64,000 nt of DNA, taken from positions 18,338 through 82,337 of the IMG/VR virus record IMGVR_UViG_3300028490_000005; one strand, given 5' to 3'. Position 1 is the first letter of the stretch; every line of letters begins with the position of its first letter. The position numbers were made by a program, and so were the translations under genes. The notes below the pieces were generated by a model. The model saw only the letters and a program-made list of their open reading frames with translations. It ran no database searches and was not told where the DNA came from. The DNA is from a virus. Shown here piece after piece: positions 7,279 through 50,899 of this stretch.

Positions 7279-7830
7279 ATGGAAACAATTAAAATAGCGT
7301 TCATGGGTGTCAGTGGTAGTGGTAAAGATTACATTGTAGATGTAGCAAAAAAGAATTTCGAATTCACGAGGTTCAGTTTCTCTGACCAACTAAAGAAATT
7401 GGGTGCTAAAATATACCCATGGTTGGAAAGTGATTATCCACCAGAAGAAAAGGAAAAGTCACTTAATATTAAGATTCCTGAGACTGGTGAAGTAATTACT
7501 AAATCACCAAGGGAAATTTGGCTAGAACTTAATAAAATGAGAAATGTAGAAGATAACTTATTTGTCAGGATGTTGGCTCATGAAATTTGGTTGACACAAG
7601 TTGACCGTCTAGTAATATCTGATATTAGAACGCAAAATGAATATGATTGGTGTGTGGAAAATGATTTTACTATCATCGCCATAAAAGGGGATGCCAAACA
7701 CCCTGAAAACTCATTTGATGACTGGGTTAGAGACATGATAGACATGGGTGAATATGATTTTGAATTTACTAATGAATTTGATGGTCATGAAAAGATTGAG
7801 ACTTTCTTTACAAGTTGCTTCGACCTTTAA
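7279..7830 (+). CDS. Deoxynucleoside monophosphate kinase (T4 gp1-like)
   Basis: GVSGSGKD, FSDQLK, SPREIW, VISDIRTQNE. Confidence 0.8.
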   Translation: METIKIAFMGVSGSGKDYIVDVAKKNFEFTRFSFSDQLKKLGAKIYPWLESDYPPEEKEKSLNIKIPETGEVITKSPREIWLELNKMRNVEDNLFVRMLAHEIWLTQVDRLVISDIRTQNEYDWCVENDFTIIAIKGDAKHPENSFDDWVRDMIDMGEYDFEFTNEFDGHEKIETFFTSCFDL

Positions 7831-7885
7831 GCAAGGTTTAAGTTACATTACGGTATAATAGAGTATAAAGTTTGAAAGGCTTAAA
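7826..7885 (+). promoter_or_regulatory. Early promoter + RBS repeat (type copy)
   Basis: TTTAAGCAAGGTTTAAGTTACATTACGGTATAATAGAGTATAAAGTTTGAAAGGCTTAAA then ATG. Confidence 0.85.
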
Positions 7886-25261: not shown

Positions 25262-26752
25262 ATGGTAGAGATAAGAAAAATTATAGAAAACTTAAGTGAC
25301 TATGGGCTTATTGAAGGTGAATTGAATGAATCTTCATTCAGTGCTTCAAAAATAAAGAAGGTATCAGACCTTCTTGCAGTAGTCCTTGGGCATTCTTTTG
25401 GAGAATTTAAACAACTTGGTGGAAGCCTTGGTTTTGAAGAATTCAAGAAGAAAGGGATGGGTGAAGGAAAGGGATACAAATACATGAACAACAAAGGGTT
25501 CATGATTAGATTTGGTTGGCTTAAAAAGTCTAAAAAGTCCAAATACCAAATTAACGTGGTAGACTTTTGGAATCCAAAAGATGGTAAGAAAAGATGGGAT
25601 ACACCTTCATTGACAATTAGATTAGCTGATTGGATGAATATTGTGGACGTAGTTTCTGAATTGAAAGATGTACTTATTTCTGGTAATGTTAATTCTATTG
25701 TAGAATCACATTCAGATAAGAAATCACTGTCACTATTAGAATCAAAAGAACCTGGAAGTAAATTAATCCAATACGCAGCATTTAAAGGTGTTGAATATGT
25801 TGGTCCAATGACACCTTACAAATTCATACAAACTCTTAAAGACGGTGGTCACTGGGATGAAGATGAATATAAAGGTTATGCAATCACTAAACATGAGAAA
25901 GAAAGTAACTCAACTGGAGAAGTTTTCAAAGCAGCAGACAAGAAATTGGCTGAAAAGAAATGGTCAGATCCTGAATTAGTATTTGATGACATCGAAAAGT
26001 TGACTAAGATTGTAGCAACTGGTGGAGCAAACGGACTAATTGTAGCTGGAATGGCTGGTATGGGTAAAACTTTCCACGTTGAAAAAACTATGAAGGCTTT
26101 ACTTGGTACGTCACAAGGTGCTGATGCTAAGTGGAGACACAGAAAAGGTGCTAAATTATCACCATTCGGTCTATATATGGACTTGTTCATGAATAGAAAT
26201 GATATGACTATTGTATATGATGACTCTGACTCAGTATGGAATGATAAAGATTCAGTGAATATTCTTAAGTCAGCAATTGATACATATAAGGTGAGACAAG
26301 TATCTTGGCCATCTAAAGCAACTGTGAACCTTGAGCTTATGGGTGTGGAAGAAAAAGAAGAATACCTTGAAAAATTGTATGATGCAATGGTGAATAACCC
26401 AGAAGCTGTTGGTACAAGTATTAAACTTCCTTCTGCGTTCGACTTTACATCAAGAATTATTTTCATATCAAATATGCCCGCAGCAAAATTTGATAAAGAT
26501 GCTAACATGTCTGCTATTAAGTCGAGAACATTCTTCATGGACGTTCAACTTAAGCGTGAGGATGTCATTAATAGAATTAGATCCATTCTACCATTCATTG
26601 AACCAGAAGTAGATATCAATATGAAAGAAGAAATTCTTGCTCAATTAGCAGAATCGGATCACACACTAACTATGAGAGCCGTTGTTGCCGCAATAGCAAT
26701 TAGAAAAGCTGGTCTTACAGACTGGGACAGATTGGTTAAAGAGTACGCGTAA
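25262..26752 (+). CDS. Late-expressed AAA+-type ATPase with long N-terminal domain
   Basis: GMAGMGKT, IVYDDSD, IIFISN, AIKSR; TTAAATAACT at 25229-25238. Confidence 0.75.
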   Translation: MVEIRKIIENLSDYGLIEGELNESSFSASKIKKVSDLLAVVLGHSFGEFKQLGGSLGFEEFKKKGMGEGKGYKYMNNKGFMIRFGWLKKSKKSKYQINVVDFWNPKDGKKRWDTPSLTIRLADWMNIVDVVSELKDVLISGNVNSIVESHSDKKSLSLLESKEPGSKLIQYAAFKGVEYVGPMTPYKFIQTLKDGGHWDEDEYKGYAITKHEKESNSTGEVFKAADKKLAEKKWSDPELVFDDIEKLTKIVATGGANGLIVAGMAGMGKTFHVEKTMKALLGTSQGADAKWRHRKGAKLSPFGLYMDLFMNRNDMTIVYDDSDSVWNDKDSVNILKSAIDTYKVRQVSWPSKATVNLELMGVEEKEEYLEKLYDAMVNNPEAVGTSIKLPSAFDFTSRIIFISNMPAAKFDKDANMSAIKSRTFFMDVQLKREDVINRIRSILPFIEPEVDINMKEEILAQLAESDHTLTMRAVVAAIAIRKAGLTDWDRLVKEYA

Positions 26753-35873: not shown

Positions 35874-36859
35874 ATGAAATTAACAAATTATGTATTAACG
35901 TTCACGGACAACAAAGGCAATTCAGTATTATGTAAAAACGACGGGTCATCAGTCGACATTTCTGAAAAGCCATTCTACAAATCAAGAGACAACGCCGAAA
36001 AGGCTATTTCTAAAATCAATAACACTTTAAAAACATTACAAGAGAAAAGACTATTCTGGTACGAAAAAGTTCAGAATGCTGGACTATACTCTCAAGATGA
36101 TTCCCAAAGAAATCTTATAGTGGACAGCTATGAGAACGGTGAATTGATTTTAGCAAACGGACTTGAAATTAAAGAAGTTATTATTGAAATTAATCTTTAA
36201 ATTAAGCAAGGTTTAAGCTAACTTACGGTATAATACAATATAAAATATAAAGGTTCAAAATGACAAAAGAAATTGAAGTAGGAAGTGAAGTTCAGATATT
36301 GGACATGGATCCATGTCTAAGAAACGACGGTGACTATGAAGTTGGTCAAATTTGTTTAGTGAAGGATATCACTGAAGTTTATGGTAGAGCTAAAAAATAC
36401 ACAGTTTGGACAGAAGATCGTTCAGGGTATTGGTTCTTCGTAGAGCCACAGTTAAAGTTGGTGTCGTAATGCCTAAAATTATCACGAACGAAACTAGAGA
36501 AATCATCTATGGTTATTCTACATATGGTGCCGATGGGTCACCAATGTCAGTTGGGGACGGGTCATTTCAAATTCATGGACAATATGAAGTAGGTGAATTA
36601 GTGAAAGCCGTGAGAGAAGCTATTGTTGAGTCGATTAACAACCCTAATATTACGTCAAAAAACATCATCCTCACATTCATGTTTGAAAATATAGTTTATA
36701 AGGAAGTTGACAATGGATAATTTAGGACAAGCTATGGTTGGAGCCATACTAGGAATTGCAGTTGCAGTTGGATTGATAGGATTGGTCATAGGAACCATCG
36801 TCGGTGCTCTGATAGGGTCATAAACTCTTTCATTGAGAAATAAATTATAAAGGTTTAAA

Positions 36860-38121: not shown

Positions 38122-38866
38122 TGTTTAAATGTAAATATAAATTGAAAGATGAATCTAAGGCTGAATTGTATGAATTCATGATAGGTATGTTAATGTTCAT
38201 GATCACTATGTTCGTGATATTTCTTGTGGGTTATTTCGGGGATAATTGGTTTGGGTTACTTACGGCAGAACAAAATGACCACTTTGTATTCAGTGAATAT
38301 TGGGATGCGGTGTTTGTGCATTTCTTGGCTGGTGTAGCTTTAATTGGTGGATTTCTCATATTTATACTTTTCCTTAATGGGGTACTCATTGGGATCAGTG
38401 ATTTAATTGAACACCTTAAAGATCAAGTGGAGTGTCGTGAAGATTACGAAGCCGTTAAAAAACGTGAAGCTCGCGAAAATAGGGATAATTAATGATAAGA
38501 ACATTAAGAAAATTCAGAAACAAATATTCTGAAAAGGTAGACGGGTTAATAGACACAGCTGAACTAGCGTACAAGTACAAAATGGATTTCAAAGTCGATA
38601 TGGGTTCTATTTTAAGTATGGAACATTATGTCGAACTCATTGGAAATTTAGATAAAGCTATTGAAGATGTGTATGATGAGGCAGATAGAGTCAGTGAGAA
38701 CGGTGAAAACGGTGAAAAGAAGCGAAAGATTTCTAATATACATGATATAATTAAAATACAAGAAGCTCAATTAAATTCTTCAAAAGAAATTCTTAGAAAT
38801 TTAACAATTTAAGCAAGGTTTAAGCTACATTACGGTATAATAGTATATAAAATATAAAGGTTCTAA

Positions 38867-39037
38867 ATGAAAACATTATTTATTTGTAATAATTGCGGTG
38901 ACGAAGCCAACTCGGAACATTGTCAAGGTTGTGGGTCAACAGACACTACAGAACTAGACACTGAAGAAGTTACATTAGAACAACTAGATGACTTCTATTC
39001 AGAAGAAGATTTGGCATCATTTGAAGAGGAAAATTAA
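38867..39037 (+). CDS. 56-aa zinc ribbon with acidic tail (not in track)
   Basis: CNNC...CQGCG; directly after a promoter repeat. Confidence 0.6.
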   Translation: MKTLFICNNCGDEANSEHCQGCGSTDTTELDTEEVTLEQLDDFYSEEDLASFEEEN

Positions 39038-39106
39038 TATGTGGGCAAGAAAAACAATAAGATAGTTAAGCTTCTTTTAAGGAAGTTTACGCTATAATAT
39101 AGATAT

Positions 39107-39355
39107 GCTCCGACTGGTTTGGGGGAAGCATTTAGGCGAAAACCTAGAATAATTAAGGAAAACGAGAAAAGTGTTCAGACGGGTTAGTTCCCTTTCTGTC
39201 CCCGATTCAAGTTATAATAGATAATTTACTGATTCCCACTGTGGTTTCAGATGAAATGAATCTGAAGATATGAACTATAAGCTTCAGATAATTTCGGGTT
39301 ATTTATTGGAATCCTTGCAGTCCCTTTCGTGGTTCGATTCCTCGACGGAGCACCA
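39107..39355 (+). ncRNA. 249-nt structured RNA with tRNA-like termini (tmRNA-like architecture)
   Basis: 5' GCTCCG pairs with CGGAGC before ACCA-3'; T-arm CGTGG-TTCGATT-CCTCG; own promoter (TATAAT 39093-39098); no long ORF. Confidence 0.75.
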
Positions 39356-39988
39356 AAAATTAAAGGCTAGAAATGAACACTGAAAAACAATATACAATCT
39401 TATTTGGTAAGAATAATAACTCAGATAAAATCGAAGTTGGTAGCTTTTATCTTTACTTAACAAGATTCTTTGTTGAATGGGAAGAATTTCAAAATTGGGG
39501 AAGAGAAAGATTTCGCCAAAAGTATTTATCTGAAGGAACGAAACAAAATGAAGCTACTTCTTATGAAGGGTTTAGACAACATACTACAGAAGACGATCTT
39601 TATTACTTCACTTTAGAAGAAGCAGAAAGAATTTTGAAGAAACTTCGAAAGAAGGCGTTCAAAATTAACAAAACACGAAGAGAAGCATTTCGCGATTATA
39701 AATATGGTAAAGCTAGAGCGAACGAATTATATGCATATGGTAAAGAGCCGTTCATTGTTAAGAAAACTAAAATTAAACAATACTTAAAGAAAGGTTAATG
39801 TGGAAAAGAAATATTTTGAAAGAAAAGATGGTAAGATTTTCAAACTCGTTTCAATGAAAGTTTATGAAAAAGGTTCTGGTTTGGAGAAATGGCAAACTGT
39901 TGCTTGGCATGAATCAAATGAAATAGGTTGTTCAACAAACTTCTACAAGGAACTATGTATAACTGAATGTGAATATATTTGTAAAGCA

Positions 39989-40048
39989 TTTAAGCAAGGT
40001 TTAAGCGAACTTACGGTATAATACAGTATAAAGTTTGAAAGGCTTAAA
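39989..40048 (+). promoter_or_regulatory. Early promoter + RBS repeat
   Basis: Near-identical to 7826. Confidence 0.85.
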
Positions 40049-40765
40049 ATGAAACGCAAGATTATAACAGCGACATTAATGCTCGGAGTTTCACTATCTC
40101 TCTTAAGTGCTAACGTATGCCAAGAGACTGAGGTTCACGTTGGTTCAATAAAACAAATGGACCTCCTTATAGAGAAGTGTGAGAAGTTAGAAAGTGTTTC
40201 TAAAACAGTAGATTTAAATGTATCAACTGCTAGTGCTTCACAATTAGAAAATATATTAGTTGTGAGTAAATTGGTAAGCGTTTATCCTAATGAGCCAGAA
40301 GCTAAAACTCAGATCATAAAGTCCGTCTTGAAGTATTCAGAGGAATATGATATTGACCCACTTACATTGACAGCGTTGATTGCTAAAGAGTCTAGTATGA
40401 ATAAGGGTGCAAAACACGGTTCAGTATTTGTAAAAATTCCTACTGCCCCTCATTGGACTAAGATTAAATCAGCTAGAGTAACAGCCGTTGGTATGGGTGG
40501 CGTCATATTTGAAATTTGGAAGTATGAGCTTGCCGAAATAGGGATTACAAGTAGAGAAGAACTATTCGGTATCGAAACAAATATTAAGGCATCAGCATTT
40601 ATCCTCAGTATCTATACACATGAACGTAAACAACTCAAACATACAGATTCAAGAGAACAGTCAGCCTTACTTAGATATTACGGTGTAACAAGAAACAAAT
40701 GGGGTGTGCCAAACAAAACGTATAGCACACAAGTATATAAAATTAAAAATTCAATTGAAGGGTAG
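40049..40765 (+). CDS. Lytic transglycosylase (SLT domain) with N-terminal signal/anchor
   Basis: YDIDPLTLTALIAKESS catalytic Glu, NIKASAFIL, ALLRYYG. Confidence 0.8.
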   Translation: MKRKIITATLMLGVSLSLLSANVCQETEVHVGSIKQMDLLIEKCEKLESVSKTVDLNVSTASASQLENILVVSKLVSVYPNEPEAKTQIIKSVLKYSEEYDIDPLTLTALIAKESSMNKGAKHGSVFVKIPTAPHWTKIKSARVTAVGMGGVIFEIWKYELAEIGITSREELFGIETNIKASAFILSIYTHERKQLKHTDSREQSALLRYYGVTRNKWGVPNKTYSTQVYKIKNSIEG

Positions 40766-50839: not shown

Positions 50840-50899
50840 TTTAAGCAAGGCTTAAGCTACATTACGGTATAATAGAGTATAAAGTTTGAAAGGCTTAAA
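50840..50899 (+). promoter_or_regulatory. Early promoter + RBS repeat
   Basis: Two mismatches to 7826. Confidence 0.85.

Follow-up and report, generated by a model that had tools for sequence, protein, structure and literature searches.

A 249-nt unit that begins and ends like a tRNA lies at positions 39107-39355 on the plus strand of the analyzed window, directly behind a phage promoter and ahead of two small open reading frames. The window, a stretch of 64,000 nt, is part of the IMG/VR record IMGVR_UViG_3300028490_000005 (82,337 bp, estimated completeness 53%); coordinates without further label refer to the window. The record has a G+C content of 34%, carries all genes on one strand and encodes T4-type replication proteins (gp32, UvsW, and a 5′-3′ exonuclease) as well as an RNA ligase and a thymidine-hypermodification set. 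Its gp32 protein shares at most about 32% identity with those of GenBank phages. The closest gp32 proteins (63-70% identity) are encoded on uncultured contigs, two of which are large: G004 (140.6 kb; contig IMGVR_UViG_3300005095_000172, L021) and G005 (110.5 kb; IMGVR_UViG_3300000228_000004, L028). The features of the locus are as follows.

39066-39098 (+): promoter of a lineage-specific type, with a TTAAGC box (39066-39071), a TTAAGG box (39077-39082) and the -10 hexamer TATAAT (39093-39098)
39099-39106 (+): left leader remnant ATAGATAT, recognized against more than 20 paralogous cassettes (standard copies: AGAGTATA)
39107-39355 (+): tRNA-derived RNA module of 249 nt, from G1 to CCA; exact ends from ARAGORN in intron mode (-i) and from the cassette break; no Rfam match
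39107-39113 (+): 5′ strand of the acceptor stem, GCUCCGA (6 pairs, then A-A; pair probabilities 0.78-1.0)
39117-39129 (+): D-like hairpin GUUU-GGGGG-AAGC of 4 bp (ARAGORN model), which excludes the P2 helix drawn in the earlier note
39131-39148 (+): local hairpin UUUAGG-CGAAAA-CCUAGA at the position of the anticodon arm, with a 6-nt loop and no U33 (in constrained folds)
39138-39306 (+): insert of 169 nt after tRNA position 32 (ARAGORN -i; boundaries uncertain)
39215-39307 (+): long Y-shaped hairpin holding the UUCAGAU/AUCUGAAG/CUUCAGAU repeats (minimum free energy fold and all constrained folds; limits approximate)
39328-39344 (+): T arm CGUGG-UUCGAUU-CCUCG, with a U-U mismatch at 51-63
39345-39355 (+): 3′ strand of the acceptor stem, ACGGAGC, with discriminator A and encoded CCA (ACCA at 39352-39355)
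39356-39372 (+): right leader remnant with ribosome-binding site, AAAATTAAAGGCTAGAA (standard copies: AAGTTTGAAAGGCTTAAA)
39373-40021 (+): two orphan ORFs, 39373-39798 (141 aa) and 39800-40021 (73 aa), co-transcribed with the module; followed by another promoter at 40022

tRNA-like ends within an interrupted promoter cassette

The ends of the module carry the canonical features of tRNA ends, i.e., an acceptor stem, a T arm with a GTTCRA loop, a discriminator base and CCA. The acceptor stem has 6 bp and is G+C-rich, and its pairing probability in the folding ensemble was about 1.0. The earlier note had pointed out this stem (GCUCCG/CGGAGC, followed by an A-A seventh pair), the discriminator A and the encoded CCA, and all of them can be read directly in the sequence. 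For the T arm (GGTTCGATTCC), the UUCGAUU loop named there is present, but the stem CGUGG/CCUCG contains a U-U mismatch that had gone unmentioned. The T-arm motif GGTTCRANTCC occurs once in the window, compared to an expectation of 0.08. The tRNA-like ends are real.

A promoter specific to this RNA had likewise been claimed, and the hexamer TATAAT was found at 39093-39098. The promoter belongs to a class defined by tandem TTAAG boxes followed by TTACG(G/C)TATAAT, which is represented by about 22 copies on the plus strand and none on the minus strand of the 82-kb record, and by about 20 copies each in G004 and G005, some of them inside tRNA clusters. The TTAAG boxes are located about 11 bp apart, at about -20 and -31, and replace the -35 hexamer. 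This arrangement is reminiscent of the activator-dependent middle promoters of T4. The full cassette reads tTTAAGCAAGGTTTAAGCTAaCTTACGG-TATAAT-AGAGTATA-AAGTTTGAAAGGCTTAAA-ATG, as found for example at 7826-7859, 36201-36234, 38808-38841, 39989-40022, and 50840-50873. In nearly every copy the -10 hexamer is followed by a stereotyped leader, and the ORF begins 26-28 nt downstream.

The copy whose -10 region ends at 39098 is exceptional, as the 249-nt unit separates TATAAT-ATAGATAT from AAAATTAAAGGCTAGAA-ATG. The module is inserted between the eighth and the ninth base after the -10 hexamer, and the break in the cassette falls, to the base, at the tRNA-like 5′ end on one side and at the CCA on the other; the left and right leader remnants add up to the normal 25-nt leader. 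No other evidence speaks as strongly for 39107-39355 being a discrete module at or next to the transcription start as this coincidence of the cassette break with both of its ends. Judged by the usual spacing of 7 ± 1 nt after the -10 hexamer, transcription probably starts 0-2 nt before G39107. No terminator-like site was found between the module RNA and the following ORF, indicating that the RNA is made as the head of the mRNA for the 141-aa and 73-aa ORFs. For these two ORFs, neither relatives nor a family was found.

Within the insert, the segment 39213-39225 (GTTATAATAGATAAT) resembles the -10 region and the first leader bases of the cassette (GGTATAATAGAGTAT), with the TTAAG boxes absent. 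It could be a cassette remnant caught in the rearrangement that formed the module.

Ancestry of the module and unusual RNAs of related phages

The 3′-terminal 25 nt of the module are identical to sequence of a genuine tRNA-Ile(gat) on the metagenome contig L037, which was the single metagenome match to this 25-mer. This tRNA-Ile is ordinary, is located in a phage-type tRNA cluster, and has an acceptor strand (GCTCTGT) nearly identical to that of the module (GCTCCGA). The 3′-terminal 30 nt showed 86-92% identity to annotated phage tRNA-Arg, tRNA-Thr, and tRNA-Val genes, and the 22-mer used for a search of cellular genomes (185,579 species) was absent from them. The identity of the last 25 nt with a phage tRNA-Ile establishes tRNA ancestry and, on these sequence matches, the module derives from the phage tRNA gene pool and not from a host tRNA fragment or an attachment site. 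An attP-type tRNA fragment was ruled out by the presence of both acceptor strands and by the lack of a cellular tRNA with the 22-mer. A MAFFT alignment placed the anticodon arm of the L037 tRNA inside the insert, a placement that was rejected as spurious in view of the 14-nt loop of that hairpin.

Canonical tRNA genes were not found across the 82-kb record (window positions 1-64000 plus L030, the rest of the record), whereas clustered tRNA genes are present in G004 (25 genes) and G005 (9 genes), almost all tRNA genes of the relatives encoding CCA. A tRNA cluster of the phage itself, if present, must therefore be located in the missing half of its genome.

Homologs of the module were sought in several ways. 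A blastn search with 39000-39420 against 50,697 phage records, including T4, gave no match; five exact or gapped patterns retrieved no homolog from viral contigs; blastn against G004 and G005 yielded chance matches only; and nothing similar was present upstream of the nearest conserved gene (SLT-like, 40049-40765) in three relatives. A loose structural descriptor scan of the relatives was dropped, as it gave as many matches in shuffled sequences. The module thus represents a single known sequence. A search for antisense targets in the phage genome gave a longest match of 13 nt, which was no better than in shuffles.

The relatives contain further RNAs of unusual type. On the reverse strand of G005, an RNA of 87 nt at 25599-25685 (about L028:8839-8925 (-)) combines a 6-bp acceptor stem with a mismatched seventh pair, a perfect T arm (GGTGG-TTCAACT-CCACC) and ACCA around a body that is not tRNA. 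It is located 47 nt after a promoter of the lineage type, was called neither by ARAGORN in default mode nor by the Rfam tRNA model, and may be a second non-canonical tRNA mimic of this phage group. In the tRNA region of G005 (L028), also on the reverse strand, two promoter-driven RNAs without ORF or Rfam match were found at about 25821-25975 and about 26006-26200; they have long terminal stems of about 25 bp and about 20 bp. The tRNA region of G004 contains a GOLLD RNA (RF02032, 191 bits, E 2e-52) at L021:4883-5341 (-), in which a tRNA-Leu(tag) is embedded at L021:5204-5274; no GOLLD RNA was found in the focal 82-kb record. The 87-nt RNA, the promoter-driven RNAs and the GOLLD RNA indicate that this phage group makes several non-canonical RNAs linked to tRNAs. 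ARAGORN -i furthermore called a 130-nt "tRNA-Phe" with a 41-nt insert, again after position 32, at G004:99072-99201 (-) (L021). This candidate has a poor acceptor stem and a T arm identical to that of the neighboring tRNA-Asn, and was rejected as probably a degenerate duplicate.

Structure of the body and comparison with tRNA and tmRNA models

Between its ends, the module differs from a tRNA, and several proposals had been made for this region. The helices UAGG/CCUA and GAUUCC/GGAAUC and the triplet UUCAGAU/AUCUGAAG/CUUCAGAU are present as described. A D-like loop without a stem had also been proposed, but a 4-bp D hairpin (GUUU-GGGGG-AAGC) is available at 39117-39129. The long helix GGGGGA-A-GCA/UGC-AG-UCCCUU, proposed to replace the anticodon arm, can be drawn, but 38% of the composition-preserving shuffles of both windows gave a duplex energy at least as good as its -11.7 kcal/mol (p = 0.38). 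Forcing this P2 helix into the fold costs 1.4 kcal/mol (-63.1 versus -64.5 kcal/mol for the minimum free energy structure), and its pairing probability is only about 0.02. The stability of the whole RNA is ordinary (z = -1.0), and three structures of the body lie within 4 kcal/mol of one another. A split anticodon stem in the unspliced RNA reaches -50.7 compared to -64.5 kcal/mol, a cost of 14 kcal/mol, whereas a local hairpin at the position of the anticodon arm, with the remainder forming a giant variable region, costs less than 4 kcal/mol. The Y-shaped hairpin is without covariation support, since no homologs were found.

The earlier note had named a rewired tmRNA first and suggested Infernal/Rfam and ARAGORN as a check; this reading failed the model searches as well as the tests of pair 3-70 and of the tag. 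ARAGORN in default mode called neither a tmRNA nor a tRNA on the module, and Rfam gave no match at gathering scores or at E ≤ 10 with stretches of 601 nt and 261 nt. Single-family models of tmRNA, tRNA (RF00005), and group I introns gave nothing at E ≤ 10 on the record. ARAGORN at a very low threshold (ps50) produced only a nonsensical permuted tmRNA call on the opposite strand, and in intron mode it called a tRNA(GGA) instead. Pair 3-70 of the acceptor stem is U-A and not the G-U of tmRNA, as had been stated, and the frame 39158-39187 (ENEKSVQTG*) is present without an Ala-type end, again as stated, and without any known tag feature. No tmRNA pseudoknots were identified in the module, and no SmpB gene was found in the 82-kb record. 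On these results, the module is not a tmRNA.

ARAGORN in intron mode at its default threshold read 39107-39355 as tRNA(gga) i(32,169) with a product of 80 nt. In this model the D stem is GUUU/AAGC with the loop GGGGG, the anticodon stem is UUAGG/CCUUG (one U-U and one G-U), the spliced loop is C-U-GGA-A-U, and the variable loop has 10 nt. It was the sole call in the 82-kb record, compared to a single call in 4.9 Mb of locally shuffled genome. With acceptor stem and T arm fixed, the call survived 1 of 300 full shuffles of the interior, and it was obtained in 5 of 1000 cases when both local windows were shuffled. When only the 5′ window was shuffled, the call was kept in 4 of 1000 cases, but in 118 of 1000 when only the 3′ window was shuffled, which indicates that the D hairpin is significant and that the 3′ side of the anticodon stem and the boundaries of the insert are not. 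Against a sequence HMM for which 26 class I tRNAs from the relatives had served as input, the spliced product reached 7.7 bits, compared to 8.3 ± 1.0 bits for controls with positions 8-52 shuffled and 12-47 bits for real tRNAs; its best pairwise similarity to tRNAs of the relatives was marginally above the null. The acceptor, T, and anticodon stems contain mismatches, and the linkers are non-standard. By the established rules of tRNA identity, an anticodon GGA would need a long variable arm of the serine type and a G discriminator. The module has no such variable arm, and its discriminator is A. Ribozyme and intron models gave no Rfam match at E ≤ 10 (261 nt, 601 nt, and whole record). A group I intron was also rejected by hand, since exon 2 would not be workable with splicing after U26, where the local hairpin has its U-G pair. 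A polynucleotide kinase-phosphatase was not found in the 82-kb record, which is estimated to be 53% complete. The module is probably not a working spliced tRNA.

Interpretation and known systems

In our view the module most likely gives rise to a non-decoding stable RNA with a tRNA cap, which tRNA-end processing would free from the head of its transcript; we give this reading about an even chance of being correct. Of the parent tRNA, such an RNA would have kept the acceptor stem, the T arm, and ACCA, which form the top half, along with a weak D hairpin; unrelated and partly structured sequence of about 170-190 nt would stand where the anticodon and the variable region had been. A standard promoter of the phage would drive the module, with transcription starting at or 1-2 nt before its first base and continuing into the two small orphan genes. 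We infer that host tRNA-end enzymes recognize the minihelix of acceptor stem and T arm and that a stable RNA of about 249 nt results, with its 5′ end presumably generated by RNase P at G39107 and its 3′ end by endonucleolytic cleavage and exonucleolytic trimming to the encoded CCA at 39355. The remaining mRNA would retain a normal leader and its ribosome-binding site. The tRNA cap might give the inserted payload defined ends and stability, as in the species 1 RNA (rnaC) of T4, and the most plausible role of the released RNA is that of a mimic engaging proteins that read tRNA ends. The mismatches A7-A66 and U51-U63 could, however, equally mean decay and, unlike T4 rnaC, the module is located outside any tRNA cluster.

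Decay is the core of the alternative that the locus is a tRNA pseudogene, disrupted by inserted or rearranged sequence and now no more than an extended 5′ leader to the 141-aa ORF, with no function of its own. Mismatches in three stems, the missing match to tRNA models and the poor sequence score, the lack of homologs, and an overall fold no more stable than shuffles are what such a remnant would show, and with no terminator the sequence would simply be part of the mRNA. Nevertheless, the acceptor stem with its six G-C-rich pairs, the T loop, the D loop with its GG, and the exact ACCA have all stayed intact in a genome of 34% G+C, and ends that match the cassette break to the base look maintained rather than like debris. 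The leader would have 275 nt, a marked exception since the other cassette copies keep 26-28 nt. We consider a pseudogene unlikely, though second in probability to the stable RNA.

A still less probable explanation is an intron-containing tRNA, in which the 169-nt insert after position 32 would be removed by proteins, e.g., by cleavage and sealing by the phage RNA ligase, to yield an 80-nt decoding tRNA with the anticodon GGA. The call at default threshold with a canonical spliced loop, the rarity of such calls after local shuffling (5/1000) and the RNA ligase gene are in line with it, and so is the anticodon stem, which is comparable to that of the L037 tRNA-Ile (G30-C40 and G31-C39 kept, C29-G41 changed to A29-U41). 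Introns matching no recognised ribozyme have moreover been reported for tRNAs of Lak phages (PMC6784885). Yet the spliced sequence is no more tRNA-like than shuffled controls, the anticodon arm is poorly defined in its 3′ half (118/1000), the split stem is 14 kcal/mol worse than the optimal fold, and three stem mismatches and non-standard linkers remain. The variable arm and the discriminator likewise do not fit the anticodon; neither group I nor other ribozyme models matched, the splice rules of group I introns do not fit by hand, and neither a polynucleotide kinase-phosphatase in the 82-kb record nor an intron-less allele was found. Most improbable by far is a tmRNA analogue, charged with an amino acid other than alanine, that would enter stalled ribosomes and add a short non-degron tag. 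It could draw on a superficial likeness to the layout of the tRNA-like domain of tmRNA, on a P2-constrained fold just 1.4 kcal/mol above the optimum, and on an A/U-rich stretch followed by a short open frame; against it stand the failed calls and model searches, the U-A pair 3-70, a P2 helix at chance level with which the D hairpin competes, a tag without known features, and the lack of identified pseudoknots and of an SmpB gene in the 82-kb record.

A more far-reaching proposal, which we put forward as speculation of low probability, is that the module is the founding member of a phage "tRNA-scaffold" system. In such a system, an intact tRNA top half would deliver a payload of about 190 nt, which could act as a sponge and bind host factors or defence toxins recognizing the acceptor/CCA end of tRNAs. 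Alternatively, proteins alone, the phage RNA ligase among them, might cut the payload out of the anticodon loop and rejoin the ends; if true, this would amount to a form of tRNA splicing not yet demonstrated for bacteria. A spliced RNA or a tRNA-end decoy would bear on phage counter-defence against tRNA-targeting immunity. Genes of this type are missed entirely by default tRNA and tmRNA finders and by Rfam.

The preferred reading of a tRNA-capped stable RNA agrees best with the last option of the earlier note, a tRNA-capped RNA akin to the T4 stable RNAs C and D: rnaC consists of a T arm and a weak acceptor stem around extra hairpins. In our fold of T4 rnaC (139 nt), the ends pair weakly, two hairpins are added, and the T arm is perfect; the 3′-terminal 95 nt of this RNA are tRNA-Leu-like by ARAGORN -i. 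Both the T4 RNAs and the module occur in T4-type phages and are tRNA-derived, with a T arm and paired 5′ and 3′ ends around hairpins that are not those of a tRNA; neither has a usable anticodon arm. To our knowledge, the T4 RNAs have been without known function for about fifty years. They differ from the module in that they have 139 and 119 nt, are located inside a tRNA cluster, and are cut from tRNA precursors, whereas the module, at 249 nt, is a solitary unit that heads an mRNA and is preceded by its own promoter. Its sequence has no similarity to theirs, its acceptor stem is far better, and it encodes CCA. Compared to the T4 RNAs, the module has far cleaner tRNA ends, a promoter of its own, and a much larger body. 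That an RNA unrelated to them occurs in a distant T4-type lineage suggests that phages repeatedly make use of a tRNA top half as an RNA cap, and that this is not an oddity of T4.

The tRNA-like domain of tmRNA (RF00023 and related) also places an acceptor stem, a T arm, and ACCA around a long insert and has a reduced D region. The module departs from it in having U-A instead of G-U at pair 3-70, a P2 helix not above chance, and no model match, recognizable tag frame, or pseudoknots. The tRNA genes of Lak megaphages contain "enigmatic introns" without a recognised ribozyme (PMC6784885). What they share with the module is their position in the anticodon loop of a phage gene of tRNA type and the lack of a recognised self-splicing fold. 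The Lak cases, however, are otherwise good tRNAs for which alleles with and without intron are known, whereas the exons of the module form a poor tRNA and no intron-less allele was found. In the tRNA-miRNA RNAs of murine gammaherpesvirus 68 and in the mascRNA of MALAT1, a non-decoding tRNA-like fold serves as a handle for tRNA-end enzymes and thereby sets the ends of the linked RNA. These systems are eukaryotic, and their tRNA-like unit is contiguous with the payload beside it, whereas in the phage module the payload is located inside the tRNA-like unit.
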